Sequence record: NC_100372.1
Direction: 5' to 3' (one strand)
From: a phage
Length of the DNA: 64,000 nt
The translations under genes and the position numbers were made by a program. Below are positions 1,270-62,188 of this stretch, piece after piece. Within the stretch, counting starts at the first letter, position 1; every line of letters starts with the position of its first letter. Below the pieces are notes generated by a model. The model searched no databases and had not been told where the DNA came from. It saw only the letters and a list, made by a program, of their open reading frames with translations.

Positions 1270-1276
1270 ACATTCC

Positions 1277-1687: not shown

Positions 1688-1708
1688 AGTAACTCTCCGT
1701 TTTAATTT

Positions 1709-1777: not shown

Positions 1778-1787
1778 AAGGGACAAA

Positions 1788-2723: not shown

Positions 2724-3070
2724 AGAAGTTGATTGTGTGGCTGGATGACTTGAGAGATCCGTCAAATTATGGGCTCCCAGATGCTCTTTGGCTAAAGAAT
2801 TCCTCTGAGTTTATGGATTTTATTAACGATAAGGGAAAGCTCTACAGGCGCGTTTCTGAGTGGCACATGGACAACGACCTTGGAGAGGTATTTGAAGGGT
2901 ACGATTGCCTATCTATGCTGGAGGAAAAATTTGTATTTGGTAAGCCTCCTGTAGTTGACAACGTGAAGATTTTCGTGCATACTTCTAACCCATCAGCTGC
3001 TCGTAAATTCATGCTTGCTGCTGACTCGTTTAAAAAGTTTGGAATAGAGATTAAACAAAACATCTACTGA
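2720..3070 (+). CDS. Hypothetical protein
   Basis: 116-aa ORF overlapping the upstream stop (ATGA-type coupling), same strand as neighbours. Confidence 0.4.
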   Translation: MKKLIVWLDDLRDPSNYGLPDALWLKNSSEFMDFINDKGKLYRRVSEWHMDNDLGEVFEGYDCLSMLEEKFVFGKPPVVDNVKIFVHTSNPSAARKFMLAADSFKKFGIEIKQNIY

Positions 3071-3078
3071 GGACACTT

Positions 3079-3840
3079 ATGCGACGACTGATCATTATCT
3101 CCGGTGCTGGTTTGAGCGCTGAATCTGGTATCCCAACTTTCCGATCTGGTGGCACTGCAATGTGGGAGAATTTCAGCATCGATGAGGTGTGTAACATCCA
3201 CACCTTTGCCAAGAACTATTATAAGGTTCATGACTTTTACAATGCACGGCGTGTAGCTCTGGGCAGTGTTGATCCTAACCTTGCACATCTCCGGATCGCT
3301 GAATGGTATTCCCGCTGGTCTGGTCGCGTGATCAACCTGACAACCAATGTAGATGATTTGCTGGAGCGTGCTGGTGTAAAACATGAAGATATTTTACATG
3401 TCCACGGATATTTGCCAGAAATAGTCTACGAGGATGATGAAGGGAGTAACGTCATTAAAGACATTGGATACTCTGAGGTAGATGCAAGCAAGTATACTTG
3501 GGTTAAGCCTAATGTCGTGTTCTTCGGAGAAGTAGCTCCAAAGTATACAGACATGTATGACCTGTTGACTTCTCTGACGAGCAATGATATGGTTATCCTT
3601 GTAGGGTGCTCCAACACAGTTATCAATTTTAACTGGGAGCTATTCCCTGCCTGTAATAAGGGGACCAAACTGCTGATCGTTAACAAATACGACTCACAGC
3701 ATTTAGGGGAGAATGGCATTTCACGTAGTGACATTTACCAGTATGAGGATCGCGGCATCCCAGTTTGGTTTAACGGGGCTGTTGACGCTTTCTCTGATAA
3801 AACATTCATTGACATCGTAGAAAACTTTATGGAACTGTAA
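3079..3840 (+). CDS. Sir2-family NAD-dependent deacylase / ADP-ribosyltransferase-like protein
   Basis: Canonical sirtuin N-terminal motif GAGLSAESGIPTFR; 253 aa. Confidence 0.85.
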   Translation: MRRLIIISGAGLSAESGIPTFRSGGTAMWENFSIDEVCNIHTFAKNYYKVHDFYNARRVALGSVDPNLAHLRIAEWYSRWSGRVINLTTNVDDLLERAGVKHEDILHVHGYLPEIVYEDDEGSNVIKDIGYSEVDASKYTWVKPNVVFFGEVAPKYTDMYDLLTSLTSNDMVILVGCSNTVINFNWELFPACNKGTKLLIVNKYDSQHLGENGISRSDIYQYEDRGIPVWFNGAVDAFSDKTFIDIVENFMEL

Positions 3841-3854
3841 GCGGAGGCCTTTTA

Positions 3855-4568
3855 ATGCTGAATACTAAACTGATTGACAACTTGGAAAAACTGTCTCAGC
3901 CTGAAAACTACCTTTGGTCTGCCAACTGGGTGGAAAATTGGAACCGTGTAGCAGCTAAAGTGAAAAAATCATACACACCATTCGAACTTCAGCTGAGTTT
4001 CATTGAGGAAGAGTTCAATGAAGTTTTGGAAGAGTTGGAGAAAGGTGATGGTGGGGATCATCTCCTAAAAGAGGCCTGCGATCTTCACGTTGTCACAAGT
4101 TATGCCGCTTATCTTGTTAACGATAACCATGAAAAGTGGTCAAACCTGTTTGATAATCCGCGAGGTCTTAAGTTTAAGATCGGTGAATTTTATGATACAC
4201 TGATCGCTGCGAAAAATACCTCTAAGCAAAGAGCGTCTGCTTACCGCTTAGCAGAGTTGTCGACAGCTTTGCTGTTCCAGCTTCGCGGTGATGTGTGCGG
4301 GATGATGCGGAAGGTTCTAAAATCTAATGACAGCAAGTTTGCACGCGTCAACCATCTGCGGTATTCACACGGTGCCAGTGCAGATATGCCTGCTGAACAA
4401 CTTATCGAGTTGGAGATTAAAGATCTTGAGCGACGCTTTGATGGTCGCTATGAAGGTTTTGTTGCTAAAGAAGAATTCTACAACGGAAATAAAGTTATCA
4501 TATTCCTCGACAGTAAAGGTAAGATTATGAAGCCTTCAAGCTTCAAGGATGTAACAGAATATATTTAA
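3855..4568 (+). CDS. Hypothetical protein, possible MazG-like nucleotide pyrophosphohydrolase fold
   Basis: Acidic helical segment IEEEFNEVLEELEKGDGGDHLLKEACDL resembles the MazG/HisE EExxE...D metal-binding pattern; weak. Confidence 0.4.
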   Translation: MLNTKLIDNLEKLSQPENYLWSANWVENWNRVAAKVKKSYTPFELQLSFIEEEFNEVLEELEKGDGGDHLLKEACDLHVVTSYAAYLVNDNHEKWSNLFDNPRGLKFKIGEFYDTLIAAKNTSKQRASAYRLAELSTALLFQLRGDVCGMMRKVLKSNDSKFARVNHLRYSHGASADMPAEQLIELEIKDLERRFDGRYEGFVAKEEFYNGNKVIIFLDSKGKIMKPSSFKDVTEYI

Positions 4569-49983: not shown

Positions 49984-50181
49984 TTATTTTTTATTAAACC
50001 AGTGGTTGATCTGGCCTTTTGTCAGGGCGCAACGATTAAGCTGTTGCCGGGTATAGCTCTGACCGCGACGGAATTTATAAAGGCCTTGCCCGTTGTTGAT
50101 GGTTACGTCCACCTGGCAAATCATTTGATCGGTGACGGCCTGGCGAGTGTTGCGACGTACTTTAATTCCGTAGGCGTTCAT
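49984..50181 (-). CDS. Hypothetical protein
   Basis: 65-aa ORF. Confidence 0.35.
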   Translation of the reverse strand: MNAYGIKVRRNTRQAVTDQMICQVDVTINNGQGLYKFRRGQSYTRQQLNRCALTKGQINHWFNKK

Positions 50182-50264
50182 GATTTTTATCCTCTCTGTT
50201 AATTAGTGTGGTGTTGTTCACCTTGCGAGGATAAGAATAACAGAACTATCCGAGCTGTCAACCA

Positions 50265-50438
50265 TTAGTTAGAATTATTTTTTGGGCAGAATTCTCCAGC
50301 CGCCGCCCCTGCCAGGTTAACCATCATTTTTTCGTACTCTTCTTTATGTTCCAACGCTCCCGCCATAGCCTTTTCAACCAGGGCGATAGCCTCAGCGTCA
50401 TTAATCGCTACATTTCCAGGGATCCTATTACCTTTCAT
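50265..50438 (-). CDS. Hypothetical 57-aa protein (MKGNRIPGNVAINDAEAIALVEKAMAGALEHKEEYEKMMVNLAGAAAGEFCPKNNSN)
   Basis: AGGAGG RBS 7 nt upstream of the ATG (minus strand); first gene downstream of the 50.4-51.5 kb ORF-free region; below the ORF-track threshold. Confidence 0.4.
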   Translation of the reverse strand: MKGNRIPGNVAINDAEAIALVEKAMAGALEHKEEYEKMMVNLAGAAAGEFCPKNNSN

Positions 50439-50652
50439 TTTTGTACCTCCTCTTCAATTGTTACCTGCCCTGTAGCATAGGCCTACCAGGTTTGCAAGCT
50501 TTCACTCTCTCCTACCTGGTCAGTCAGGTCCTGCCAGGCTGGCCCCGCCAGGTTGCAGCGGTTGGTGTATTATGTTAGAAAAAATTTTTGAAGAAGTGTT
50601 GACAGCGGCCCCGCCAGGTGGCACAATATACCTATCGAAAGGACGGCAGGCA

Positions 50653-50845
50653 CCGGTGACGGGGGAGACAACCACCGGGGATGGGCGCTGCATAAAATGA
50701 GAACGGTTATCATTATCATTTAAAAATTTATGCAAAAAATCCTTGCTTTCTTTGTCCTGTGTGATACTATAATAACAAGCCGGGGCAACAGGGGCCGGGA
50801 GACAATCACCGGGGGTGCCCGTTATTCTGCAAACGAGAATGATTA
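50653..50845. repeat. Two copies of a roughly 60-bp composite element: GGGAGACAAYCACCGGGGRTG, about 15 nt, GAGAAYGRTTATCATT, then an A/T-rich tail
   Basis: Copy 1 at 50653-50710 (gggagacaaccaccggggatgg ... gagaacggttatcatt), copy 2 at 50787-50845 (gggagacaatcaccgggggtgc ... gagaatgattatcatt). Confidence 0.75.
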
Positions 50846-50980
50846 TCATTCAAAATTCTAAATGAGAACTTTTCGCATTTCATAAATTTAGTTAGCATGC
50901 TAATTACCTACCGTGACAATTCTATATAAAATAATACCTCCTTAAATATTTCCATATACAAATTTTAAAAATCCATTTCC

Positions 50981-51150
50981 GAAAACGAAAAATCGATTTC
51001 GTCCCCAAAAATTTCAGGTCGAGCTCCGGAACGATTTCCAGAAAATCTGATTCAGAAAACGAAAAACAGATCGAGTACTAAGAAATTTATCGAGAAAAAT
51101 TTTCAGAAAATTCAATCTTTGAAACGAAAAACAGATCGAGTACTGAGAGA
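50981..51150. repeat. Imperfect tandem direct repeats, about 66-74 bp period, core GAAAACGAAAAA(C/T)(A/C)GAT(C/T)
   Basis: gaaaacgaaaaatcgatttcg 50981, gaaaacgaaaaacagatcgagtact 51055, gaaacgaaaaacagatcgagtact 51121; ATCCATTT(T/C) also recurs at 50971, 51324, 51341 and 51396. Confidence 0.75.
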
Positions 51151-51386
51151 GATGTATCAAAACCTGCTGAGAATAATGGGTTTATTGTTATAAAGGGTCA
51201 AAGGTAAGCTGGGAAAGTTCCGGTAGAAGGGTGAGAGTATGTGCGGAAAATCTGGAATAGTAACTTAAAGTACGGTGCGAACGATAGAATGAGCAGCACA
51301 TCTTATCGCGCCTGTCTTGAAAAATCCATTTTAGTTTTCGATCCATTTTCTGATTTTCTAAGAATTTTAAAATATCCGGCTAGGTA

Positions 51387-51417
51387 AAATATCAAAAGGA
51401 GGAAATCCATTTTAGAA
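51387..51417 (-). terminator. Candidate terminator for minus-strand transcription entering the ORF-free region
   Basis: aaggagga-N15-tcctcctt; on the minus strand followed by ttgatatttta; large loop lowers confidence. Confidence 0.4.
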
Positions 51418-51455
51418 ATCCTCCTTATACTTGATGTGCCAGGGATTTTCAAGTA

Positions 51456-51785
51456 TCAACTGTCTTTGTTTTTAGGCTTGTGCATACGTAGAGGTATGGT
51501 CTTTATAACATTCCATCTGCCCAACCCCTCCCAGTTCCAATTGTGAGCGTGATACCCAGTTATGCATGCACTGCTGGCGTGATCATAAGCATAAGAGAAC
51601 GCTATGCGAACCAGGTGGGGCCAGTCCCTCCACGGCTGTGGACCGTAAGCCTTTCTCCAACACCGACACAAACTAATTGTCTCAAGAATAGGTAGAATAA
51701 CAAATCCATATACCGCCACCAAAATGGTAAGAGCAATGATTGTCAGGAATACATACCCTGCAGTTGAAATAATGATCTCTGTCAT
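51456..51785 (-). CDS. Membrane protein
   Basis: Hydrophobic N-terminal half (IISTAGYVFLTIIALTILVAVYGFVILPIL); 109 aa. Confidence 0.4.
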   Translation of the reverse strand: MTEIIISTAGYVFLTIIALTILVAVYGFVILPILETISLCRCWRKAYGPQPWRDWPHLVRIAFSYAYDHASSACITGYHAHNWNWEGLGRWNVIKTIPLRMHKPKNKDS

Positions 51786-51985
51786 TTGTCATCCCCTTTC
51801 TTACGGATATAGATGTGAGAGCCTGCTTGTACATAAATTTCCCGACCATCTTCTGCAAAGATGTGGAATACACGGTCGCCTTCGTATTCAATACGGGATA
51901 TCTTCATAACGGTCTTCCCACCCGGAATGCGGATCTCATCACCCACAGCAATGTTCCATGCAGATTTAAGCTTAAACATCTGCAC
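51782..51985 (-). CDS. Hypothetical protein
   Basis: 67-aa ORF, coupled. Confidence 0.4.
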   Translation of the reverse strand: MQMFKLKSAWNIAVGDEIRIPGGKTVMKISRIEYEGDRVFHIFAEDGREIYVQAGSHIYIRKKGDDK

Positions 51986-52217
51986 CCCCCTTTGGGAGCT
52001 CTAACTCTGGCATAGCCATATACGCCACGACAGGGTTGTAATCAAAGTAGAAATGACCGTTAATTATCCCAGTTTTGTGGGCATAGTCACCAGATCCTGC
52101 AAGAACAATCTCGCAAACTCCGAAATCCACCTCGCCATTCTCATCTGCCATGGCTACAATATACTTTCCTAGAGGCATGTTTTTAACGCCGTCTACAAAT
52201 GTCCACCCTTTGTTCAT
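51972..52217 (-). CDS. Hypothetical protein
   Basis: 81-aa ORF. Confidence 0.4.
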   Translation of the reverse strand: MNKGWTFVDGVKNMPLGKYIVAMADENGEVDFGVCEIVLAGSGDYAHKTGIINGHFYFDYNPVVAYMAMPELELPKGGADV

Positions 52218-52237
52218 ACTTTATCTCCTGCACTTTC

Positions 52238-52570
52238 TTAAGGTAACCAGTAAACAATTTCGCCTTTCAGTTCCATGTCGTTACCGACATAGATTTTCCA
52301 GCCATCCATTTTAGCCACTGCAGGAGTGAAGCCCGTAGAACCACTAACCTCTTTCCAAGTCCCGTAGTCAGGTTGCCAGATATAGAATCCACCTCCCTTG
52401 TCCCATGCTCCATATACCACATCGAGCAGGTTGCCCATTGCAACAATAGTAGGCCGTGGGAATAATACATCTACAGATGCGCCACAATTTCGGGTAGATT
52501 TTAAATTACAATCCCAAAAGATGTCTGCCAGTGTGGCGGCGATAGCTTTACGTCTTTCTAATGTTACCAT
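52238..52570 (-). CDS. Hypothetical protein
   Basis: 110-aa ORF. Confidence 0.4.
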   Translation of the reverse strand: MVTLERRKAIAATLADIFWDCNLKSTRNCGASVDVLFPRPTIVAMGNLLDVVYGAWDKGGGFYIWQPDYGTWKEVSGSTGFTPAVAKMDGWKIYVGNDMELKGEIVYWLP

Positions 52571-52580
52571 GGCACGATAC

Positions 52581-52772
52581 TCACTTGTTGTTAAGAAGTT
52601 CTAAAACTTTCTGTTTTACTTTATCAAGGTCTGTTGATTCAAAAATTGTGCGATATCCCCAACTTTGCCCATAGGAATAACTGCAATCCCCGTAACACCA
52701 TTGCTCAACTTGATAGTATTCAAGGAATGGGTGCTGTCTGACTATGATACCGTCTCGATTAAAAATTACCAT
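52581..52772 (-). CDS. Hypothetical protein
   Basis: 63-aa ORF. Confidence 0.35.
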   Translation of the reverse strand: MVIFNRDGIIVRQHPFLEYYQVEQWCYGDCSYSYGQSWGYRTIFESTDLDKVKQKVLELLNNK

Positions 52773-52835
52773 AATTTATCCCTCTCTGCTAGTCTATGTT
52801 TGTATTATATACTGCAGTTTTCAGATGTCAACCTT

Positions 52836-53030
52836 TTACAGGTTACTCCAGTATAATCGGCATTTACACTTCGGGCAATGAGGTTCTTTTATGTAATAAC
52901 CATCAGTCTTTGGAACACTTTTTGGTGCAGTTTTAAGATTGTACCGAGTAAAGCACCGGAAGCAGGTTACCTCTCCTACCTGTTGATCGTTTATCCACTC
53001 ACCAGAGTAAAGCTCTTTCTTGTTTCTCAT
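52836..53030 (-). CDS. Small zinc-ribbon protein
   Basis: CFRC...CPKCKC pattern; start at MRNKKELY with a GGGGAGAG RBS. Confidence 0.4.
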   Translation of the reverse strand: MRNKKELYSGEWINDQQVGEVTCFRCFTRYNLKTAPKSVPKTDGYYIKEPHCPKCKCRLYWSNL

Positions 53031-53281
53031 AATTCTCTCCCCAATCCTCTGCAATCTTATACCAGAATCTCCAGCCAGAAAGCACACGGGAACACTTTGA
53101 GGATTGAATCTTTACTAGGCTCGGAAGTTCTTTTTCCGTAGGGCAGGTAGAAATACCCTCCTGCAGATTCAAACATGGCTCCTTCTGTTGTATCTATCAC
53201 AGCTAGAATTAAGATTTTAGTCTCCATAGTGCTCCCCTGTCTTAATCGTTGTGGTGACTATACCACCTTAAAATATAGCTG

Positions 53282-53821
53282 TCAACACTCTTTGTACTCC
53301 ACCACGATAATATCTATATCAAAAGTGGCAAGGTTAATAATGTCCTCTACATGTTCCCACTTCAAACCGCCTATGCCGCACCCGATCTTAGGGATGTAGA
53401 ATGGTAAAATCGACCCCTCAAATACTTCATTGACTCGCTCAAAGCCTTTCAGTATTGAGAAATATTCAGCATTAGGCCCTGGGTAGAACTGAGTATACAG
53501 ATTTATTCCGTAGACAATACCTCTCGGAGATAAGTGCTCCCAGCGGGAGAACGCGCCCAGTTTACTTAGGCAACCGTGCATAGTCATTTTATCAGCTTCC
53601 AATGCTTGAGGGAACTCACGGGCAATCTGTTTTGCTACACCCTTACCCATTGTGTGGAAGCAGTTACAACCGTGGATCAGGTGACCATCACCGCTCTTAA
53701 AAAGGGAGATTAAATCTCCCTCTACAGTATCAATAATCACGATATTCCAGCTCCTCTTCCACAATTTCAAAAAACTCAGTCCAGCACTGTGGCATATTGG
53801 AGTTACCGAAGTGGCTTTCAT
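53282..53821 (-). CDS. Putative macro-domain (ADP-ribose binding/processing) protein
   Basis: VIIDTVEGDLISL, IHGCNCFHTMGKGVAKQIAREF and PKIGCGIGGL resemble the macro-domain GDIT...NAAN...GGGV...G-rich loop pattern; start uncertain (overlaps the upstream ORF). Confidence 0.45.
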   Translation of the reverse strand: MKATSVTPICHSAGLSFLKLWKRSWNIVIIDTVEGDLISLFKSGDGHLIHGCNCFHTMGKGVAKQIAREFPQALEADKMTMHGCLSKLGAFSRWEHLSPRGIVYGINLYTQFYPGPNAEYFSILKGFERVNEVFEGSILPFYIPKIGCGIGGLKWEHVEDIINLATFDIDIIVVEYKEC

Positions 53822-54155
53822 AGTAAAGGTTTTTACCGCTCGGAAGATAGAAATCTGTTACCTCATAAAATCCACAATCGTCGCACTCTCCCTCTTCAAA
53901 CTTGGCCTTAACCTTAATGCCGAGGAAGGTGAAAAGTTTATGGATATCTTCGGTCTCGAACTCCCAATTAATGTTGTTTTCCGCATCGGTGTAAAACTGG
54001 ATCAGTAGGCCATCATCCATTTTTCCAAAATATTCTGTGAAGTAGCTTCCTTCCCAGAAGTCTTTGTGACAAATAATATCCATGCGCTTGCCCATAATAA
54101 AGGTGTGGGCGTTTCGTGCATCGTCACGAATCAGTTTTGGCATTTCATAAATCAT
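53730..54155 (-). CDS. Hypothetical protein
   Basis: 141-aa ORF. Confidence 0.4.
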   Translation of the reverse strand: MIYEMPKLIRDDARNAHTFIMGKRMDIICHKDFWEGSYFTEYFGKMDDGLLIQFYTDAENNINWEFETEDIHKLFTFLGIKVKAKFEEGECDDCGFYEVTDFYLPSGKNLYYESHFGNSNMPQCWTEFFEIVEEELEYRDY

Positions 54156-54220
54156 CGTAGTTCTCCAGGATCAATAGGTGGTGCTACAGGAAGATCATAA
54201 AACATGGCGATCACATTCTC

Positions 54221-54418
54221 TTACGCAGGAATTGCTTCAAACAGGCCGTTATCGATACCATCCTTCAAGTAAAGATTATACTCTATGTCAGTATCTGTGT
54301 AAAGGGCAGCATCTAGCATTCTATCTGTGAGTCCATCCATTGGGTGGAGAAACCACCACCCACGCCAGTCAAAGTAACAACCTGGTGCATCTTCTCTCAC
54401 ACGGATTCGATAAATCAT
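54221..54418 (-). CDS. Hypothetical protein
   Basis: 65-aa ORF. Confidence 0.35.
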   Translation of the reverse strand: MIYRIRVREDAPGCYFDWRGWWFLHPMDGLTDRMLDAALYTDTDIEYNLYLKDGIDNGLFEAIPA

Positions 54419-54514
54419 GGGCAGTGGCCTCCTGTTAGTTACACATCCCAGTTTTCTTCGTTCATCACATCCTCCAGCTCAACAAGGTTATAATTGCACA
54501 CCTTACAACCCGTG

Positions 54515-54931
54515 TCAACAGAAAACTTCAACAAATTCTTCCACAGTTTTAATGTCATGGGAAAAAGGTTTGCGGCTATAACGGGCAATAGCACTGTCAA
54601 CCACCGCCCGGTACTCCAAATCTTCAGAATATTTCATGAAGCATTGCAACGTCTCTGGACAGATAGCCAGATAGCTCCACCACCCCTCTTCAGATTGGTA
54701 GTCAAATCCCATACTCTCTAGCCACGAAGCGTATACACCTGCACCTTCCAGCCAGTGAGTATTTTCATCAAGAAACTTGTTCACAGTCATGTGAGCTTCT
54801 AAGCATTTATCCAGCTCTTTTCCGTTAACCAGCCACGCACTGACAGTGGCGCATCCAAGATCCACAGATTGAGCTGATAGATTGTATTGGTCATAGTTCT
54901 CAGGTTTAACAATGATATCTTCTAATGTCAT
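54515..54931 (-). CDS. Hypothetical protein
   Basis: 138-aa ORF. Confidence 0.4.
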   Translation of the reverse strand: MTLEDIIVKPENYDQYNLSAQSVDLGCATVSAWLVNGKELDKCLEAHMTVNKFLDENTHWLEGAGVYASWLESMGFDYQSEEGWWSYLAICPETLQCFMKYSEDLEYRAVVDSAIARYSRKPFSHDIKTVEEFVEVFC

Positions 54932-54993
54932 TTTTCAGTCCTCTATATACAAAAATGCCCCACCCTTTCGGGTAGGGCTATGTTAACTAGATG

Positions 54994-56220
54994 TTAAAAA
55001 GGTATGTCATCATCAAAGGCGTACTGTGCCGGATTCTGATCCATCGGGTCGTCTTCCGCATCATCTACAGGAGGAGCGTCTACAGTGTTTTGCTGTGGGG
55101 CGGCTTCCTGTTTGGCAGCTTGAGGCTCTTGATGGTCAGTGGCTCCAGCACCGTTCTTGATCCAATCATACAACGGTTCAGCAAGATTAGTCAAGACATC
55201 TTTTGCCTCTGCAGTAATTGCTACTGCAAAATCATCAACTTTCGTTTTCTTGTCAATACGGCGACAAGCGTTCAATACCGCATTACCAACACTGGCACCT
55301 ACTTCATCTTCAGTTCGGTTAGTGGCTTGAGCGTACTCTTTCTTAAGCTCGATGGTGACCACGTGCAGTGTTTTAGCCACATCTAAAGGGCTGTCAATCT
55401 TAAACCCGCGATCCAGGATGATCTGCAATGCATTGATACTGTGCCCTGTCTCTACACCGATGGGGTCGTAAGAGGATTTACGCTTACCACCAGAACCTTG
55501 TGTACCGTTCTCTGCTTTAGGCGGGTAGGCCTTGAAGCCGCTGATAATATTCCCGGTGTCTTTGTCAACAATAGCTGCAACACGACCACCTACCACCAGG
55601 TCTTTAAGCTGCTCATCAGAGACAACCATAGCACCTTCACCAATCTTGTGATCATTGACAGTAACCACGTTGCCAACAATCTGAGTCACATCGCCATAGA
55701 TGCGTAAAACGTCCTGATTGGCATTCTGCTGAGGTTTCTGCTTCTGGCCTTGTGATTGTGCACCTTGTTGCTGTTTTTGCTGCTGAGTCGCTGCTGGAGC
55801 CTCTCCTGCACCCAGCTTGACCATCTTAGCCAGGGAGCCTTTGTAATAGGTCTTACCGTTATGCTCGTTTGCCTTCAAAGGGATATTTACGATCCATCCT
55901 GGCGTTACAGTTTCCCACTTGTCATCAATTTTAACAGAGACAGAGTCTTGATGACCCGGTTTAAGCAGCTTATCACCCATACTGATCCAAACTTCTTCAC
56001 CACCTTGAAGCAGGTTATCAGAGGAATCCAGTTCAGAAATCAGTAAAGAGATGGTGTGGCTGGATTCAATTTTCTTACCTTGCCACACAGTGGTTTTAAT
56101 ACCTGTTGTAGGATCAGCACCTTTGATAGGCTTGATGCTGACACGTTTAATCATGCCGTGAGCCAGTAAAACAGTTTCACGCGGATTCATCGGGTTAGCG
56201 AATTGTTGAATAACGCTCAT
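54994..56220 (-). CDS. SSB-like protein with bacterial SSB C-terminal tip
   Basis: C-terminus ...DDPMDQNPAQYAFDDDIPF matches the E. coli SSB tail (...MDFDDDIPF); Gln/Gly-rich linker; 408 aa; the N-terminal region is not obviously a canonical SSB OB fold. Confidence 0.55.
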   Translation of the reverse strand: MSVIQQFANPMNPRETVLLAHGMIKRVSIKPIKGADPTTGIKTTVWQGKKIESSHTISLLISELDSSDNLLQGGEEVWISMGDKLLKPGHQDSVSVKIDDKWETVTPGWIVNIPLKANEHNGKTYYKGSLAKMVKLGAGEAPAATQQQKQQQGAQSQGQKQKPQQNANQDVLRIYGDVTQIVGNVVTVNDHKIGEGAMVVSDEQLKDLVVGGRVAAIVDKDTGNIISGFKAYPPKAENGTQGSGGKRKSSYDPIGVETGHSINALQIILDRGFKIDSPLDVAKTLHVVTIELKKEYAQATNRTEDEVGASVGNAVLNACRRIDKKTKVDDFAVAITAEAKDVLTNLAEPLYDWIKNGAGATDHQEPQAAKQEAAPQQNTVDAPPVDDAEDDPMDQNPAQYAFDDDIPF

Positions 56221-56585
56221 TATTTATCTCCTTGTTCTTCGTTAGTGTTTGCCGTGTGTGCAAACCCTGCTTGAATTAATTTGTCCTGAACTTGAGCCAA
56301 CAGGCCCATTGCAAAACTTGTGGTCCCAGAGAGGGCCATCAGCATATCTCGTTGTTGAGCTACCCAACCTAAGGCATAGTCCAAACGACGATATTTTTCT
56401 TCTTCACGCAGAGCCTGGAATAATTGTTCAGCCTCTGGCTGTTGTGTAAGCTCCTGAAGTCTTCCCATGAAAGAAGAAAGCACTAGCAGAAGAGACACTT
56501 GATCTTTACTTAACCCTAAGAAAAATTCTTGAGGTTGTTCTTGCTCGTTCATCGCAACCGACGCTTGATCGTTCATTTGTTCCAT
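56220..56585 (-). CDS. Hypothetical protein
   Basis: Start trimmed to MEQMNDQAS with a GGAGA RBS; stop overlaps the SSB-like start. Confidence 0.4.
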   Translation of the reverse strand: MEQMNDQASVAMNEQEQPQEFFLGLSKDQVSLLLVLSSFMGRLQELTQQPEAEQLFQALREEEKYRRLDYALGWVAQQRDMLMALSGTTSFAMGLLAQVQDKLIQAGFAHTANTNEEQGDK

Positions 56586-56668
56586 TATGGAATCTCCGAT
56601 TTTATTTGAACAACATAGAAGGAGACACCATTTTAGCATCTCCTTCTGCAAATTACAACAGGTATTTG

Positions 56669-56914
56669 TTAGCCAATTACTTCGAAAGTACCCCAACTCC
56701 CGTTCAGCAGGCAGGTGATCGGATCACCATCATCGTCAATTATTTCAAAGTTTTCAACATCCAGAATATGGTCATCGAACACAATGCTCTTATCGCCACC
56801 ACCAGAAATAACAGCGTATTCCTTACCTTGTGTTAGGTTCTGGCAACCTTTGCCGCCGAAACCAACTTCAACACAACGTACTTTCTGTCCTGCGCGAGCA
56901 ACTACTCCAGCCAT
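56669..56914 (-). CDS. Hypothetical protein
   Basis: 81-aa ORF. Confidence 0.4.
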   Translation of the reverse strand: MAGVVARAGQKVRCVEVGFGGKGCQNLTQGKEYAVISGGGDKSIVFDDHILDVENFEIIDDDGDPITCLLNGSWGTFEVIG

Positions 56915-56931
56915 CTTAAGGTCTCCTGATA

Positions 56932-57252
56932 TTAATCGTCAAGTTCAAAATAGATTTTAACAGCTTCATCAAAGATTGGAATCCCGATGTTGTTGATAAG
57001 CTGCCAAACTACCATATCTTTTCCTGGATCTGGGAGAATGTCAACCTTTCTCCATGCGCTGTATATCCAGTTCGGACCGCCTTCTGCACTAACTGGTAGA
57101 TTTTCACCAGCTTCTTGTAAATACTTATACAGCAAAAGGTATTCTGGGTACTCTAGAACACTGTCCTCTGTAGTATATAGCAGTTCACGGTATACTTTCA
57201 AGAATCCTGTTGGGTTGATGTTTTCAGTCTTCATTTGCTGCTTCTCCTGCAT
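56932..57252 (-). CDS. Hypothetical protein
   Basis: 106-aa ORF. Confidence 0.4.
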   Translation of the reverse strand: MQEKQQMKTENINPTGFLKVYRELLYTTEDSVLEYPEYLLLYKYLQEAGENLPVSAEGGPNWIYSAWRKVDILPDPGKDMVVWQLINNIGIPIFDEAVKIYFELDD

Positions 57253-57628
57253 TCATCAGATCTGCCATAGCGTCACCAACGAAGAGGACAACCACGTCGT
57301 TGACAGCGTCAGCATCATCTTTATTGATGTTGCTGAATTTGGGGCACACTGCAATGACCATATAGACCCCGTTGCCCAACTGAACAGTGCGTGTAGTGCA
57401 CATTAGTGTGGTGCTTGTGCCTTCTTTAAAGGCAAATCCTTGCAGACGTTCTTCCAGAGAGTCACCTGTGGATTTCAACAAGGCAAGATCGCCCAATGCG
57501 TAGGTAGTGTCCTCATAGGTCAGTCCAGAGGTCAATGTTGCCTTTCCATCAGAAACTATAATAACCCCATCGGCACCGTCAAGCTCAGAGGCTTCAAAGA
57601 TATTAATATCCCAAATGTTTTTCATCAC
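57224..57628 (-). CDS. Hypothetical protein
   Basis: 134-aa ORF. Confidence 0.4.
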   Translation of the reverse strand: MMKNIWDINIFEASELDGADGVIIVSDGKATLTSGLTYEDTTYALGDLALLKSTGDSLEERLQGFAFKEGTSTTLMCTTRTVQLGNGVYMVIAVCPKFSNINKDDADAVNDVVVLFVGDAMADLMNAGEAANED

Positions 57629-57945
57629 GCTTCCTCGTCATCTAATGAGTTGAAGATTTCACCGAAGTATTCTAAGACTTCCAGCTCACGGGTGGTGCAG
57701 AAAACACAGTCCCCGTTGTCATCTTCGATAACGGCCTCTTTACCAAGAACATCCACTTCAAATTCGTCGTTTAACAGAACGGAACCTGTGTAAACTTTAT
57801 CTGCCGTGCAGTCCCGAAAAGCAGAGTCCTTCTCCAAGTAGTCTGGCTTAACCTTGGCTTTAATTCGTTGATATTGTTTGGTCATTGCTGTGGTCCCCTT
57901 TCGTTTTGATAGGGCCATTATATTAGGCCCTATCGCTATTGTCAA
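57625..57945 (-). CDS. Hypothetical protein, paralog family C
   Basis: AFRDCTADKVYTGS...DDNGDCVFCTTRELEV; paralogous to 57949-58203. Confidence 0.4.
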   Translation of the reverse strand: MTIAIGPNIMALSKRKGTTAMTKQYQRIKAKVKPDYLEKDSAFRDCTADKVYTGSVLLNDEFEVDVLGKEAVIEDDNGDCVFCTTRELEVLEYFGEIFNSLDDEEA

Positions 57946-57948
57946 GTA

Positions 57949-58203
57949 TTAATGCTCAGGTTTTACAAAAACTACTTCGTTAACAGTGCACCAGACAGAA
58001 TCTCCTTCATCATCTTTAAAGGTAAGACACTGGGCTGAGTTTTCCAACTCATCGAGCTCTTCTTGTGATAAATAGGTCCCTTCTTCCAGAAGAGCTTTTA
58101 CCAGAGGGTTCTCACAAAACTCTGCTTCATAAACTGTACCGATTGTGCAATCTTTAAAAGCTCGGTCATTTGCAACGCACTCTGGCTTCAAAGTGATTTT
58201 CAT
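57949..58203 (-). CDS. Hypothetical protein, paralog family C
   Basis: AFKDCTIGTVYEAE...DDEGDSVWCTVNEVVFV. Confidence 0.4.
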   Translation of the reverse strand: MKITLKPECVANDRAFKDCTIGTVYEAEFCENPLVKALLEEGTYLSQEELDELENSAQCLTFKDDEGDSVWCTVNEVVFVKPEH

Positions 58204-58279
58204 TTTAGCAGTCTCCTCAATTATTTAAAAATCAACTCTCTGTTTGTGTGGAGCATCTTATATCCAATCTTACTTCTTG

Positions 58280-58678
58280 TCAATGACTATTTTCAATCAT
58301 CCACACAGGGTCGAGGTAAATTTGTTGGCGTTTTGCCCAATGACAAACTTCATTGTACATCTGAATCTCTTTGTCTGTCAATTCACGAATAGGCTCATCT
58401 ATACCCTCATTTTTGTGGTAATCCCAGTCGGCATCGATTTCCCACAACCATGACTTACGATCTTCACGCTTACGCACACAAAAGTCCCCAGGACGGCCTG
58501 CCAGTGCATTTAAGAACTCGTTCTCCGCTCGCTCCTGAAGAATACTAAGGAGCAAAACGTTGGAGCATGACCGTAAAATATGCTTCAGCTCACAATCATC
58601 AATCTCAACTTCAATACGTTGCTTGACTGTGTGGGTACCTTTTACTAACATTCTACCTCCTCTATACAAACTCTGCAA
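58280..58678 (-). CDS. Hypothetical protein
   Basis: 132-aa ORF. Confidence 0.4.
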   Translation of the reverse strand: MQSLYRGGRMLVKGTHTVKQRIEVEIDDCELKHILRSCSNVLLLSILQERAENEFLNALAGRPGDFCVRKREDRKSWLWEIDADWDYHKNEGIDEPIRELTDKEIQMYNEVCHWAKRQQIYLDPVWMIENSH

Positions 58679-58856
58679 GGGTTGTGTTGTTCACCGCACC
58701 ACAGTAGATGGAATATCCCAACCCATTATGGTGCAGAAACCACGGCACACCTTGGTCATCCTTCACGTATACATCTCCATTTTCCGTGAAGGGCCAATAC
58801 TCTTCCCCAAGGGTAAAATACCTACTCATACCTTCAGCCAGATACTTTACTTTCAT
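58662..58856 (-). CDS. Hypothetical protein, paralog family D
   Basis: FTLGEEYWPF...DDQGVPWFLHHNGLGYSIY. Confidence 0.4.
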   Translation of the reverse strand: MKVKYLAEGMSRYFTLGEEYWPFTENGDVYVKDDQGVPWFLHHNGLGYSIYCGAVNNTTLAEFV

Positions 58857-59080
58857 AGATCCTCTTCAACAACTACAAACTTGGCAAGTAGGGTGGTCCC
58901 ATAGATATGATACTCACCATTTGCCAGATGGGAGATATACCAGGAGATACCGTCCTCGTCTTCGATCATATTGTTCCTGCGATCCTTATCGTAATAAACC
59001 TTGTAGACCTTACCTTCTTCAAAGAATGACAGGTCTGTCATCTTTTCTTCTACAAATGTAGCTTTAACCAAAGTTGTCAT
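58853..59080 (-). CDS. Hypothetical protein, paralog family D
   Basis: FFEEGKVYKVYY...EDEDGISWYISHLANGEYHIY. Confidence 0.4.
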   Translation of the reverse strand: MTTLVKATFVEEKMTDLSFFEEGKVYKVYYDKDRRNNMIEDEDGISWYISHLANGEYHIYGTTLLAKFVVVEEDL

Positions 59081-59451
59081 TGATCTGTCTCCTTCTTGTT
59101 GAGCCGGAACACTGCAATAATAGCATTTCCAAGATGCAGTGTCAAATCATTCCCCAGATACCATAACATTCCACGGTCATCTTTGATGAAAGGATAACAA
59201 TCCGGTGCTTTCCAGACATTATACACTTTGCCGACCTGAAAGAAATCAGGCCCTGTTGGAATTTTAGTACCGGGCCACACTTGAGACACCTGAACGCACT
59301 CTACCTGCATAATGACAGGGATAGTCATAGAAGTAAATGTTTTTGTTGGTTCTACTACCATAAAAGTCTCCTCTCTGTCTAACAACACTTCCGTGTGTTG
59401 ATAGTTTACATTAGTGACAATCGCCCCAGTTACGACCGCACAAGTATTCAC
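59077..59451 (-). CDS. Hypothetical protein, paralog family D with N-terminal extension
   Basis: FFQVGKVYNVW...DDRGMLWYLGNDLTLHLGN; the longest ORF overlaps the polymerase 3' end by 41 nt, so the true start may be internal (for example MVVEPTKTF). Confidence 0.35.
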   Translation of the reverse strand: MNTCAVVTGAIVTNVNYQHTEVLLDREETFMVVEPTKTFTSMTIPVIMQVECVQVSQVWPGTKIPTGPDFFQVGKVYNVWKAPDCYPFIKDDRGMLWYLGNDLTLHLGNAIIAVFRLNKKETDQ

Positions 59452-62188
59452 CTGTGATCTGGAACGGAACGCCCATCATTTTAGAAGCCTGCCAGAAGCA
59501 ATGCACCACCATTTCGCCCACAGGGCTCCAGATAAGTTCAAGCTTTCCGTCATCGTTCAAGATAGGATCGTATACCGTATTTCCGTCCTTGTCAACCACT
59601 TCGTTTCCGTCCTCATTTTTGCGTGCCTTTTTGTACTTATGACCGTCGAACACATGAAGTTTAGCCTCTTGTTGGGCTTTAAATGTTTCCAGCTCTTCAA
59701 TTGTGTCGAAGGTGTATACAGTTTTATACTTAGGGGTGTCAGGCACTTGAAGCTGATATTCGTCATGGTAATAAATAATACGACGAACACCTTCATCATA
59801 CCATCCACGCTTCACCATTTGGTGGTGCATGAGGATTCCGACCAAGTCGCACAACGATGCACCGCCATTTTGCTGATATGCATTAAGCAAAGAGTGTTTA
59901 GAGCGGGTCCAAATGGCATGCCCGTCAAAAGAGTAGATAAATTTCTTACCTGTTGCTTCCCAGAATTTCTCCAGATCCTCTTTGCGCCCCTTAAGACCTG
60001 GGTTGGCATCCCAGAGAGCATCAATTACTCTCTGCCCCAGTTCTGGAGAGATATCCAGCATATCTGCAACTTTATCTTTTTGTGCCCCATACATAACCCC
60101 ATACGTGATAGGTTTACCATCGTTACGAGACACCTCTCTACCTGCTACTTTTGTATATGCCTCAGCATTGTTTTGGTGCGCGTCCCCGTTACTTACAACA
60201 TCATAATACAGACCGTTGTCAAACTCAAAGGCACCCCAGGCCCCGATGAGCTGCTCTAAGTTGGACCCGTCAATACCGATCTCAAAGTATCCAGGAGGAA
60301 CACCCCACAGACTACGCATCTCTTTACCCATAACCACTTTAGGAGATGGTTTAGGCATGTTTGCACAAATACTATGTTTCTGTCTGGAAGTGTTTGTTAA
60401 TCCAGAACTTTTAGCAGGAAGCTTGTGGTCAATCTTCAAACGTGGATGATTAAGAAGACCAGTATCTACCTTATCTTCCTTGATTGGATCAAGGACCGAT
60501 CTGCGGTTTCGCAATGATAACCACAAAACGATATCTTTAGCCATCTCTCCGTTCAATTTTTCAAGATTCGGGCACAGGTGTCCAAACGTATCTTTCAGTT
60601 GCGGAGAAGTAATAAGCGCTCTGGCTTTTCTACGTATCTTCCCAAACACTTCCTTTTTAATCCTTTCTGAGTTAGGGAAGCTTCGGAACTTGTGCACGGT
60701 TGTCTGGAACTTAGCATCGGTTTTGTTCCAGAAGTTGATAATCAGGTCACAATACTCTGACTCTAAAAGCTCGTCCATATATGCATATACTCGTGCATCA
60801 ACATCTGCATCAGGTAGAGCTTTCTTCTTGCTGTCTTTAGTTACATCCTTAGTTCTCCACATTGTCGGAAGCCAACCAGCACTGATCAGGTATCGCTTAA
60901 TGTCGTCCTGGTTGCTGATTTTCATAGGTATCTTGCAGTCCGGCATTCGCTTCTGCTGTAGATCACTTATTGCCTGATCCATTAGCTCTTTAGGTAAAGG
61001 TTGTGGTGTGGAGGTGCCCTTAATATAGCCTCTCAAGAAATCAGCCATCTTATCGGGGTCTTTGCAGCCCATCTCTTCACACCATTTTATCCCCATCTTG
61101 CTGACATCTCCTGTGGAGGTAAATGCTCGCTTAGGCGGGGCTTTGAACTCTAAAGCGCTCATGTCCACAGGATAGCCAAGCTTATCTTTTAACCATTTCC
61201 AACCATTATTGGAGATTGTCCCATCTTGGTTAAACGGCTTTTCAGGGAACTTGGGCCGCTGAGACATTGACAACTCTTTTAAAGGAAGTTGAGGTTCAAC
61301 ACGATCAGCGATCTCTTTCATCCACGCATCGCAACGGTCCCGTAAAGCAATAGCCCCATCTATGTCGAAATACACCCCCTGTCGAGCCTGCAGCTCCATC
61401 AGAAAGTGCTGTAACATGCCTCGGCGTAATGCGTTCTTCCAGGTGATTTTCTTGAAGCCTTTCGGCTTCTCTTTGGCAGGATCGTACATAAAGTTCTGCA
61501 TGTCAGATTTGCCGTAGAATACACCTTTTGATTCCGCTACCAACTCCTTCCAGAGCAACTCCTGGATGATAACGTCCTCGAACACACGATCCACATACTT
61601 CCACAGAGGAAGCTCACGCCAGTCATCGATTTGAACTTTCTGGTTACCAAGGGCATAGCCCCATGCCATAAGGCCATGAGGTCCAACAGGTTGCATTTTC
61701 TTGGTAACTGGATTAAATACTGCGTCCGGACAACCTTTTGGCAAAGGGCGGTCAGGCCACAAGATTCGACTCATTGCTAACGTATCGAACAGATTAACCT
61801 GGTGGTCGTTGATAGTCCCCATGCATTTAGGATCACGGAACATATCAAAATGAATACCGGATAATCTCTCCATCAGCATAAAGTCGTAGCTGTAGCAGTT
61901 ATGACAGTTCAAAGCTGTAGGTGACCAGTCTGAGTTGCCTGTAAGCCAGCCTTCCAACTCTGAAAAATCTGCTATGCGAGCCTCAAAATCTGTATAAAGG
62001 GTCTTCTTTGCCAGAATGAAGTTCTTAGCTTTCTCCACATCCTCTTCAGAGTAGTGTGTGCGGTCATTTAGAGGAAGGAACAGCATAAAACGGTTCTTAT
62101 TCAGCTCTTTAAACAAACCGCAGTGATAATAAAGATCTGGGTCTTCCAGCAGGCCAGAGGCCTCAAAATCGAACGACCACATGCTCAT
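59411..62188 (-). CDS. Family A DNA polymerase with 3'-5' exonuclease domain
   Basis: Exo I FDFEASGL, Exo II HNCYSYDFMLM, motif B-like KPITYGVMYGAQ, motif C IIYYHDEYQL; 925 aa. Confidence 0.9.
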   Translation of the reverse strand: MSMWSFDFEASGLLEDPDLYYHCGLFKELNKNRFMLFLPLNDRTHYSEEDVEKAKNFILAKKTLYTDFEARIADFSELEGWLTGNSDWSPTALNCHNCYSYDFMLMERLSGIHFDMFRDPKCMGTINDHQVNLFDTLAMSRILWPDRPLPKGCPDAVFNPVTKKMQPVGPHGLMAWGYALGNQKVQIDDWRELPLWKYVDRVFEDVIIQELLWKELVAESKGVFYGKSDMQNFMYDPAKEKPKGFKKITWKNALRRGMLQHFLMELQARQGVYFDIDGAIALRDRCDAWMKEIADRVEPQLPLKELSMSQRPKFPEKPFNQDGTISNNGWKWLKDKLGYPVDMSALEFKAPPKRAFTSTGDVSKMGIKWCEEMGCKDPDKMADFLRGYIKGTSTPQPLPKELMDQAISDLQQKRMPDCKIPMKISNQDDIKRYLISAGWLPTMWRTKDVTKDSKKKALPDADVDARVYAYMDELLESEYCDLIINFWNKTDAKFQTTVHKFRSFPNSERIKKEVFGKIRRKARALITSPQLKDTFGHLCPNLEKLNGEMAKDIVLWLSLRNRRSVLDPIKEDKVDTGLLNHPRLKIDHKLPAKSSGLTNTSRQKHSICANMPKPSPKVVMGKEMRSLWGVPPGYFEIGIDGSNLEQLIGAWGAFEFDNGLYYDVVSNGDAHQNNAEAYTKVAGREVSRNDGKPITYGVMYGAQKDKVADMLDISPELGQRVIDALWDANPGLKGRKEDLEKFWEATGKKFIYSFDGHAIWTRSKHSLLNAYQQNGGASLCDLVGILMHHQMVKRGWYDEGVRRIIYYHDEYQLQVPDTPKYKTVYTFDTIEELETFKAQQEAKLHVFDGHKYKKARKNEDGNEVVDKDGNTVYDPILNDDGKLELIWSPVGEMVVHCFWQASKMMGVPFQITGEYLCGRNWGDCH

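Follow-up and report, generated by a model that had tools for sequence, protein, structure and literature searches.

Yeast Poa1p, a macro-domain protein, clears by-products of tRNA splicing, and the Tpt1-Cpd1-Poa1p series is the model for such ADPr>P and ADPr-1''P by-products; human TARG1/OARD1 and the MacroD enzymes deacylate O-acyl-ADP-ribose. A thymidine-targeting DarT exists in E. coli (PMC9967889), and DarTG2 blocks E. coli phages (PMC11825919). Phage T4 needs its protein Tk.4 on DarTG2 hosts, as seen in a transposon screen and with a clean knockout; this support is genetic only and comes from a preprint (bioRxiv 10.1101/2025.11.20.689424). Because T4 requires it to plaque on such hosts, Tk.4 has been named AdfM, for anti-DarT factor macrodomain. 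The AdfM of phage PhiKZ, gp104, takes DarT2 marks off DNA and is imported into the phage nucleus (PMC13309987). [quoted passage not shown] A different activity is represented by Adpp of Vibrio phage Gary (KNV71_gp137), which in purified form dephosphorylates ADPR-1''-P and is needed for NARP1-AP to defeat aRES (bioRxiv 10.64898/2026.01.28.702374).

Here we describe a macro-domain gene in a stretch of 64,000 nucleotides (record NC_100372.1; the window) from a Vequintavirus, an rV5-like phage of E. coli. The domain is already annotated in relatives, and the part of its family in ADP-ribose conflicts has been published. Near-identical genomes label the gene "macro domain protein" or "phosphatase"; the historical annotations "phosphatase" and "Poa1p-like" stem from resemblance to Poa1p and TARG1. 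The macro region is covered in 111 of the 119 matching records and kept in essentially all close relatives, and 177 phage records hold a copy of the gene at 60% identity or more; the copy in phage Bas59, bas59_0089, is 80% identical.

Table 1. Features of the macro-domain locus and of the sirtuin cassette in the window; promoters and ribosome-binding signals are candidates
Feature	Position	Strand	Remarks
Macro-domain CDS, 152 aa (probable extent)	53282..53740	-	GTG start; TGA stop 53284-53282; from ECP2303 annotation and homologue starts
5' extension of longest ORF, 27 codons from ATG 53821	53741..53821	-	Inside upstream gene; probably not translated as part of the macro-domain protein
Shine-Dalgarno-like GAGGAG	53751..53756	-	-16 to -11 of GTG, read from sequence; in last codons of upstream gene
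HGCN, codons H23-G24-C25-N26	53663..53674	-	Counterpart of macro-domain N-x-x-N motif
MGKGVA, codons 31-36	53633..53650	-	Phosphate-binding loop 1 (G-x-G-[IV]-A), from alignments
Q84 and short FYPGP(N) loop, codons 84-89	53474..53491	-	At position of DarG K80, TARG1 K84, SCO6735 Q85
IPKIGCGIGG, codons 116-125	53366..53395	-	Diphosphate-binding loop 2, from alignments
Upstream gene, 141 aa, PHROG 8157, unknown function	53730..54155	-	Stop overlaps macro start
Sigma-70-like promoter candidate, TTGACA-17-AATTAT with TG	54490..54518	-	Upstream of three-gene run 54418 to 53282
Second promoter candidate, TTTACA-17-TATAAT	54303-54275	-	Consensus match only
Strong terminator-like hairpin	54978-54957	-	Closes preceding unit
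Sigma-70-like promoter candidate, TTGACA-17-TATAGT with TG, 11/12	53257..53285	-	Begins at macro stop codon; for next small gene 53227-53057
rV5-type cassette	715-4568		See text
Sir2 protein	3079-3840		Pfam 1.1e-26

The first-pass annotation had placed the gene on the minus strand at 53282-53821 and quoted the segments GDLISL, IHGCNC...MGKGVA and IGCGIGGL. Translation confirmed this ORF, which encodes 179 aa and contains all three segments letter for letter; the stop and the strand stand, but the start probably lies 81 nt too far upstream, the GTG at 53740 being likelier (Table 1). In phage ECP2303 (97.8% nucleotide identity) the GenBank CDS is the same 459 nt, begins at the GTG and is named "macro domain protein". 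Most homologues are ~145-205 aa long (150-155 aa for the close ones), and all but a few have N-termini that align at this GTG (MII...), T4 Tk.4 doing so from its residue 1. The 27-residue N-terminal extension was found in none of the homologues compared, and PHROG, Pfam and PDB matches begin no earlier than residue 24-33 of the 179-aa form. No Shine-Dalgarno sequence precedes the ATG at 53821, and a start there would overlap the upstream gene by 92 nt. From the GTG the overlap is 11 nt, which, together with a putative Shine-Dalgarno sequence inside the upstream gene, is compatible with translational coupling; the two genes probably form one transcription unit.

By sequence and by model, the product is a small stand-alone macro-domain protein. 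Pfam Macro (PF01661) was matched along all 118 of its positions with E 2.1e-07 and 31.3 bits, above the gathering cut-off of 22, and PHROG 335 matched with E 5.9e-61. A profile of the family found SCO6735 as its best match among PDB sequences (E 2.4e-18), followed by BT1257, M. tuberculosis DarG, TARG1 and Poa1p at 1e-17 to 1e-15; in a single-sequence PDB search the best match was the DarG macrodomain (5.9e-07). In the defence-system and antitoxin libraries the DarG macrodomain alone was matched (PADLOC DarG 2e-13, NCBIfam DarG 2.7e-11), over no more than the first 140 residues of DarG. The AlphaFold2 model (pLDDT 96.9, pTM 0.91) is predicted to adopt the three-layer alpha/beta/alpha macro fold of the TARG1/DarG/Poa1p/SCO6735 type: Foldseek returned probability 1.00 to TARG1, DarG, Poa1p, BT1257 and SCO6735, with TM 0.75-0.85 to TARG1, DarG and SCO6735 and 0.7-0.85 for Poa1p and TARG1 taken together, and the best viral structural match (BFVD) was a tk.4 protein. 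The macro-domain assignment, originally made by eye and to be dropped had profile searches failed to show such a domain, thus stands and agrees with Pfam, PHROGs, NCBIfam, PADLOC, PDB profiles and a high-confidence model. Orthology to DarG itself was ruled out, since the match to NCBIfam DarG (NF048014) reached 43.4 bits against an equivalog cut-off of 250 and spanned only profile positions 3-143 of 338, and since the protein has neither the C-terminal domain, nor the Lys, nor a darT neighbour.

The quoted segments, which had been taken for parts of an ADP-ribose pocket, coincide with the expected macro elements: GDL is the first strand of the domain, and the others hold the N-x-x-N counterpart and loops 1 and 2. 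Across the family alignments (88 members) N26 never varies and H23 hardly ever does. N26 falls on N27 of SCO6735 and on the second Asn in the M. tuberculosis DarG VNTVN, which we take as the counterpart of Taq DarG N22. H23 falls on H24 of SCO6735 and on the His in the Poa1p "LIHSCNC", read as the H23 equivalent after the chain numbering had been corrected for a tag offset. Loop 1, aligned with TARG1 MGAGIA and DarG MGKGIA, has G34 and A36 invariant and M31 and G32 at least 90% conserved among the 88 homologues; loop 2, aligned with TARG1 MPRIGCGLDR and DarG VPPLGVGNGG, has P117 and G120 invariant and I119, G122 and G125 at least 90% conserved. Both loops are intact and are predicted to bind ADP-ribose. 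At the Q84 position all 88 family members have Gln, as do Tk.4, Gary Adpp, SCO6735 and BT1257; M. tuberculosis DarG, TARG1 and PhiKZ AdfM have Lys there.

The closest characterised relative is T4 Tk.4 (41% identity over 153 aa, E 7e-43), and the phage protein is by its sequence a full-length homologue within the Tk.4 family (PHROG 335), which occurs in ~2800 phage genomes. The earlier suggestion that phage macro domains can reverse ADP-ribosylation imposed by toxins accordingly has a precedent in the same family, in Tk.4 and its need on DarTG2 hosts.

The genomic setting is one of small genes. Neither Pfam nor PHROGs gives a function for any of the ten neighbouring ORFs, which have no Pfam match save one phage zinc-binding domain and include no darT; a functional clue from operon partners was for that reason given up. 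Promoter-like sites, which are consensus matches only, number 35 against 19.6 +/- 5.5 expected and lie nearly all on the minus strand; the macro gene, one of a block of small early genes, would be under promoters of the host type. About 50 kb away, on the other strand block, lies an rV5-type cassette of calcineurin-like phosphoesterase, RNA ligase, Sir2 and MazG-like pyrophosphatase. AAA_33 and cREC Pfam matches also occur, placed to the window as a whole. The Sir2 protein is closest to SIRT5 and CobB (class III), by which a SirTM-type (macro-linked, ADP-ribosylating) sirtuin was ruled out.

The greater closeness to Tk.4, the short PGPN loop and the lack of NARP1 genes make an AdfM-type enzyme that erases DarT2 marks from phage DNA the best reading of the protein, and one to which we would give an even chance. 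The protein would act as an orphan "antitoxin-like" enzyme, as T4 Tk.4 is proposed to do. Host DarT2 toxin would ADP-ribosylate thymidines in single-stranded phage DNA; the ADP-ribose moiety would be bound in the pocket of the protein and the bond between ribose-1'' and thymine hydrolysed, so that ADP-ribose is released and a replicable template restored. The chemistry would be that of SCO6735 and not of DarG/TARG1, with Gln84, in place of the catalytic Lys, positioning the substrate and an activated water without a Schiff base. Since there is no DarT-binding C-terminal domain, the protein would work by erasing the mark and not primarily by sequestering the toxin. This reading is favoured by a phage without the NARP1 genes that give the phosphatase activity its purpose; against it stand the absence of the catalytic Lys of DarG and the sirtuin-based RNA-repair cassette, which could itself yield ADPR-1''-P.

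The last point leads to the main rival, in which the protein is an ADP-ribose-1''-phosphate phosphatase (Adpp/Poa1p-like) converting soluble ADPR-1''-P to ADPR, the substrate coming from host RES-domain NAD+ phosphorylases (aRES/RES toxins) or from the predicted sirtuin-based RNA repair of the phage; we regard it as possible but rather doubtful. Gary Adpp, a proven ADPR-1''-P phosphatase, belongs to the same homologous family (36% identity, 76 bits, E 2.5e-23), and as it carries the same H, N and Q, the active site cannot separate a de-ADP-ribosylase from a phosphatase. H23, common to Adpp and aligned with the Poa1p His, points the same way, as do the historical annotations, the presence of aRES in E. 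coli, the cassette in the window, for whose type Iyer et al. predict ADPr>P release, and the macro/NARP1 genes of PAK_P4, Liucustia and Gary, which adjoin genes for RNA ligase or AAA_33. However, no homologue of Adps or Namat was found by tblastn with the Gary queries in the window and the rest of the ECP2303 genome (best E 0.3), so the ADPR made would not rebuild NAD+; the idea that the phage encodes a NARP1/NARP2 partner at another place was dropped, none being found. The distance of the cassette on the other strand block also speaks against a phosphatase, as does the uncoupling of these sirtuins from macro genes (Iyer et al.), and T4 has Tk.4, with no Sir2-like gene seen at the tk.4 locus, the part of T4 covered. 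The phage protein is, moreover, nearer to Tk.4 than to Adpp (41% vs 36% identity) and, like Tk.4 and a Felixounavirus copy, lacks the insertion of 5-7 residues after the Gln seen in three independent NARP1-embedded macros (Gary, Liucustia, PAK_P4). Because one long-loop member (P0047) sits in a T4-like contig without NARP1, loop length argues only weakly and in one direction, and it was set aside as a discriminator; two more long-loop members (P0040, P0075) showed no NARP1 context on their short contigs. At the equivalent of Poa1p S30, the phage protein has Thr and Gary Adpp Arg. A neighbour-joining tree (200 bootstraps) supported only the Vequintavirus clade (96%) and the split from the DarG/PhiKZ type (95%); with bootstraps of ~0 at deep nodes it did not separate Tk.4 from Adpp as the sister of the Vequintavirus proteins, and phylogeny was dropped as a means of placing the protein.

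Eraser and phosphatase need not exclude each other if Tk.4-type macrodomains use one Gln-based site for two jobs, erasure of ADP-ribose from DNA thymidine and dephosphorylation of ADPR-1''-P. In rV5-like phages the second job would clear the ADPr>P/ADPr-1''P of sirtuin-driven, NAD+-dependent RNA repair (Sir2, RNA ligase, cREC, kinase, MazG) and could also blunt RES-type NAD+ phosphorylases; we think this unlikely, and if true it would join two defence/counter-defence axes and RNA repair through one 17-kDa enzyme. Removal of ADP-ribose from protein or RNA, whether to counter another ADP-ribosylating defence, such as an mRNA- or protein-modifying ART toxin, or to reset phage-induced ADP-ribosylation, seems improbable: SCO6735 and TARG1 can clear glutamate-linked ADP-ribose from proteins as well (PMC9411070), macro domains are versatile (PMC9503650) and the fold match to TARG1 is equally good, but there is no precedent in the family, whose only in vivo phenotype is with DarTG2, and no ART gene appeared among the best 25 of 30 families in the Pfam scan of the window. 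We hold it very improbable that the protein deacylates 2''/3''-O-acyl-ADP-ribose from the class III (CobB/SIRT5-like) sirtuin of the phage. The window does encode a Sir2, and TARG1, a top structural match, is such an enzyme; the two genes, however, lie 50 kb from each other and are not transcribed together, sirtuins are not shown for T4 or most of the ~2800 phages with a Tk.4-type macro, and the rV5 sirtuin is predicted to serve RNA repair rather than deacylation (Iyer et al.). Dead SCO6735 still inhibits DarT through interaction (PMC9411070), which, with the missing canonical Lys, would suit a protein that holds ADP-ribose as a binder or sponge without catalysis, or one that inhibits DarT by binding it; yet Q84, N26 and H23, the equivalents of residues needed for SCO6735 catalysis, are invariant or nearly so in 88 diverse members, and genetics or biochemistry marks two family members as enzymes, so that we give this reading hardly any credence.

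An AdfM-type eraser would provide a probable counter-defence role for one of the many small early genes of Vequintavirus, a phage-therapy group whose early region is almost wholly unannotated. The name AdfM now spans two macrodomain lineages, a Lys-type, DarG-like one in chimalliviruses and a Gln-type, SCO6735-like one in T4, rV5-like phages and many others. As the Gln-type lineage also holds Adpp, the transfer of "phosphatase" or "anti-DarT" annotations within PHROG 335 is ambiguous and calls for a biochemical discriminator.

Set beside the known systems, the phage protein resembles Poa1p and TARG1, its top structural matches, in fold and in the HxCN His, but is only 22-24% identical to them and has Gln and Gly in place of the Lys84/Asp125 dyad of TARG1. 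It belongs to the same ALC1/TARG1-like fold class as the DarG2 macrodomains of Thermus aquaticus and M. tuberculosis (PDB 5M31, 5M3E, 5M3I), from which it differs in having Gln for the catalytic Lys80 and His for the first Asn of VNTVN, in ending after the macro domain (152 aa) without the C-terminal DarT-binding domain, and in having no adjoining darT. The chimallivirus AdfM, PhiKZ gp104 (Cell Rep 2026, PMC13309987), is likewise a stand-alone phage macrodomain with the same proposed role and name, yet with 26% identity (pairwise E 5e-06) and a DarG-like N23/K78 active site, Lys against Gln, it is a lineage separate from the Tk.4 family. SCO6735 of Streptomyces coelicolor (PDB 5E3B; PMC9411070), the best solved relative by profile, also stands alone without a partner toxin and has Q85, H24 and N27 where the phage protein has Q84, H23 and N26 (the Gln and the HxCN His and Asn), whereas it is bacterial, DNA-damage-inducible and ~23% identical, with a longer post-Gln loop containing K89 and G-Q for T-Q. 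Gary Adpp is of the PHROG 335 type and shares the binding loops and the H, N and Q residues, but it lies between Adps and Namat, both absent from the Vequintavirus phage, carries a 7-residue insertion behind its Gln, which is preceded by Gly and not by Thr, and acts on a proven substrate that is soluble ADPR-1''-phosphate and not DNA. The likeness is greatest to T4 Tk.4, which is again a stand-alone protein of ~150 aa with Gln at the catalytic position, encoded in the early region of a large virulent E. coli myovirus, and which has in common with the phage protein the motifs HGCNCFHTMG, NLYTQFxPGPNxEY and IGxGIG, including the short QFxPGPNxEY loop; the two differ in family (Straboviridae vs Vequintavirinae), in neighbours (tk/vs vs unknown small genes) and in loop 2, IGAGIGKG in T4 and IGCGIGGL here.

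The minus-strand ORF that the first-pass annotation had placed at 53282-53821 is present, and the segments quoted from it (GDLISL, IHGCNC...MGKGVA and IGCGIGGL) all occur in its translation, letter for letter, but ATG 53821 is an unlikely start. Homologues are mostly ~145-205 aa long (150-155 aa for close ones), and with few exceptions their N-termini align with GTG 53740 (MII...), which follows a GAGGAG, runs 11 nt into the end of the upstream gene and is the GenBank start of the copy in phage ECP2303. On the homologue N-termini, the GAGGAG and the ECP2303 start, the CDS is best given as 53282-53740 (-), encoding 152 aa, the form used here for residue numbers. The surrounding 4.5 kb matches 119 phage records at 93-98% identity; most are of Escherichia Vequintavirus (rV5-like), and 16 bear Campylobacter phage names. 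The nearest copy is that of phage NHEP1 (99.3% protein identity). Since the gene is already annotated in these near-identical genomes, as 'macro domain protein', 'phosphatase', 'Poa1p-like family protein' or 'hypothetical protein', the domain assignment is already public.

That assignment, originally made by eye, proved correct in Pfam-A, PHROG, NCBIfam, PADLOC, PDB profile, AlphaFold2 and Foldseek analyses alike. The Pfam-A Macro domain was matched over the whole model (E 2.1e-07; 31.3 bits, curated cut-off 22) and PHROG 335 ('phosphatase') with an E of 5.9e-61; in NCBIfam and in PADLOC the sole match was DarG, to its N-terminal macrodomain part only. A single-sequence search of PDB sequences returned the M. 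tuberculosis DarG macrodomain, BT1257, Poa1p, SCO6735 and TARG1, and a profile of 88 homologues recovered the same five proteins with E values of 2.4e-18 to 6e-15. The AlphaFold2 model computed from the 88-homologue alignment (pLDDT 96.9, pTM 0.91) matched all five with a Foldseek probability of 1.00. The resemblance is real and far beyond chance, and the window protein belongs both to the macro domain family and to that of T4 Tk.4 (PHROG 335).

Relatives were detected by tblastn in 2802 of 50,697 phage records, including those of T-even phages and other members of the Straboviridae, in which the gene is named tk.4 and adjoins vs, as well as Ackermannviridae, Felixounavirus, Pakpunavirus, Vibrio Demerecviridae and Acinetobacter phages. 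Seven residues are invariant in the 88 diverse homologues (N26, G34, A36, N80, Q84, P117, G120) and eleven more are conserved in at least 90% of them (H23, G24, C27, M31, G32, Y82, T83, G88, I119, G122, G125). Q84 aligns with K84 of TARG1 and K80 of DarG, the catalytic lysines; Gln occupies this position in 88/88 members, T4 Tk.4, the Adpp of Vibrio phage Gary, SCO6735 and BT1257, and Lys in M. tuberculosis DarG, TARG1 and PhiKZ gp104. The fold, binding loops, conserved H23/N26/Q84 constellation and homologies of the window protein are established, and it is almost certainly a catalytically competent macro-domain ADP-ribose-1''-hydrolase. An orthologue of DarG was ruled out by its score (43 bits vs a 250-bit cut-off) and by the lack of a C-terminal domain, the Lys and a darT neighbour. 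In Escherichia phage AYO145A (Felixounavirus) a 261-aa protein carries the homologue as its first 155 residues, the macro protein of this genus extending ~100 residues beyond the macro part. An unexpectedly close relative occurs in a giant virus of eukaryotes: Marseillevirus A0A481YV05 ('SNF2 subfamily protein'; 40% identity, TM 0.94, BFVD) carries a macro domain, which recalls the combination of macro and SNF2 in ALC1.

The ten neighbouring minus-strand ORFs all match PHROGs of unknown function, one of them also a Pfam family (a phage zinc-binding domain), and in Pfam and PHROGs none of the ten is a darT, ART or NAD-salvage gene. A three-gene run, apparently ending with the macro gene, begins downstream of a strong terminator-like hairpin. 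Consensus matching gave 35 sigma-70-like sites in 50000-60000, where 19.6 +/- 5.5 were expected; nearly all lie on the minus strand, several are perfect or near-perfect, and they precede many of the small minus-strand genes. This excess fits an early block transcribed by host RNA polymerase and suggests many short early transcription units. The annotated homologue of the zinc-binding ORF begins ~19 codons downstream of the start of the longest ORF. The 408-aa PHROG 4477 protein has long Gln/Pro-rich low-complexity stretches and ends in ...AFDDDIPF, the motif of the acidic tail at the C-terminus of bacterial SSB. This protein may be a divergent SSB of the phage, or an SSB-tail mimic that recruits host SSB-interacting proteins.

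Features of the window and loci of other phages (the latter numbered within stretches, L, of the named genomes)
Feature	Location	Strand	Evidence
Metallophos (calcineurin-like phosphoesterase)	715-1374	-	Pfam
RNA ligase, T4-type	1788-2723	+	Pfam
ORF	2720-3070	+	
Sir2	3079-3840	+	Pfam 1.1e-26; PHROG 2162, 9e-109; closest to CobB and SIRT5
MazG-like pyrophosphatase (nucleotide pyrophosphohydrolase)	3855-4568	+	
Perfect TTGACA-N16/17-TATAAT	52831-52804	-	consensus match
Zinc-binding ORF	52836-53087	-	Pfam Phage_zn_bind_2, E 1.6e-22
Terminator-like hairpin	54978-54957		
408-aa protein	54994-56220	-	PHROG 4477 (unknown function); no Pfam match
Perfect TTGACA-N16/17-TATAAT	57945-57917	-	consensus match
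NARP1 locus with macro homologue, Vibrio phage Gary	L006:2129-5159		
NARP1 locus with macro homologue, Ceto	L004:3135-6149		
NARP1 locus with macro homologue, Acinetobacter phage Liucustia	L005:901-4474		
NARP1 locus with macro homologue, Pseudomonas phage PAK_P4	L010:1969-5480		
Macro protein, Escherichia phage AYO145A	L009:4995-5780		

Two functions have recently been published for the family. Transposon sequencing singled out tk.4 as the only T4 gene to be depleted on a DarTG2 host, and its clean knockout sensitised T4, whence the name adfM, for anti-DarT factor macrodomain (bioRxiv 10.1101/2025.11.20.689424). The RES-domain defence aRES produces ADPR-1''-phosphate, which Gary Adpp (KNV71_gp137) dephosphorylates; the NARP1 operon, with Adps and Namat, can then rebuild NAD+ (bioRxiv 10.64898/2026.01.28.702374). 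In three phage lineages that are unrelated to one another (Ceto/Gary, Liucustia and PAK_P4), macro homologues lie inside or abut such operons, and some tblastn matches overlap genes named 'ribose-phosphate pyrophosphokinase' or 'nicotinamide phosphoribosyltransferase'. Just upstream of each NARP1 locus there is an RNA ligase gene and/or one for an AAA_33 ATPase or a phosphoesterase. Membership of Adpp in the same family makes the transfer of function ambiguous.

The chances appear evenly balanced that the main role of the window protein is anti-DarT2 DNA repair, as for Tk.4. It is closer to Tk.4 (126 bits vs 76-86 bits) and has in common with it the segment after the catalytic Gln (NLYTQFYPGPNAEY vs NLYTQFQPGPNFEY), where a 5-7-residue insertion is present in each of the three macros embedded in NARP1; however, long post-Gln loops occur also without NARP1, the catalytic H, N and Q are common to both characterised enzymes, the support for Tk.4 is genetic only, and a neighbour-joining tree supported only the Vequintavirus clade (96%) and the split from the DarG/PhiKZ type (95%), but not the order in which Tk.4, Adpp and that clade branch. 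It is rather unlikely that ADPR-1''-P phosphatase activity is the main role. The window phage lacks the genomic hallmark of an NARP1-AP Adpp: neither Adps nor Namat was found by tblastn in the whole Vequintavirus genome (the window plus two further ECP2303 stretches; best E 0.3), so that such a phosphatase would not restore NAD+. The DNA-eraser and phosphatase activities are not mutually exclusive; many macro domains perform both in vitro.

A substrate for the phosphatase could also arise within the phage. The Pfam scan of 87 window ORFs revealed at 715-4568 an rV5-type sirtuin-centred cassette; AAA_33 kinase-like and cREC matches also occur among the 87 ORFs as a whole. Such cassettes are predicted to form an NAD+-dependent RNA-repair system in which a KptA/Tpt1-like sirtuin removes RNA 2'-phosphates and releases ADPr>P (Iyer et al. 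2022, PMC9503650), a pathway that a Poa1p/Adpp-like macro protein could finish. Against this link, 50 kb separate the cassette from the macro gene, and no macro coupling was noted by Iyer et al. (PMC9503650). Under the anti-DarT2 reading, the gene would be expressed early, loops 1 and 2 would bind the ADP-ribose moiety, and the ribose 1'' position would be hydrolysed, Gln84 holding substrate and water in position in the way proposed for SCO6735; thymidine-linked ADP-ribose written by DarT2 on phage ssDNA would be the physiological substrate. DarT2 is known from E. coli, whose phages it blocks (PMC9967889; PMC11825919), and the suggestion in the first-pass annotation that phage macro domains can reverse ADP-ribosylation by host defence toxins is in line with current literature.

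Compared with known systems, the window protein aligns over its full length with T4 Tk.4 (41% identity, E 7e-43) and shows 36% identity (76 bits) to Gary Adpp. SCO6735 takes thymidine-linked ADP-ribose off ssDNA by a proposed water-activation mechanism, and its activity is abolished in Q85A and Q85E (PMC9411070); the activity was confirmed with synthetic substrates (PMC12879935). PhiKZ gp104, by contrast, is a Lys-type, DarG-like protein of a separate lineage with 26% identity to the window protein. The paper describing it (Cell Rep 2026) states that no macrodomain Adf had previously been reported. The name AdfM was coined twice, independently, for phage macrodomains that are not orthologous: the Gln-type Tk.4 (preprint, November 2025) and Lys-type gp104. 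To the public record our analysis adds a corrected start, a Gln-type active site common with SCO6735, the recognition that 'AdfM' covers two lineages, and the placement of Adpp in the same family.
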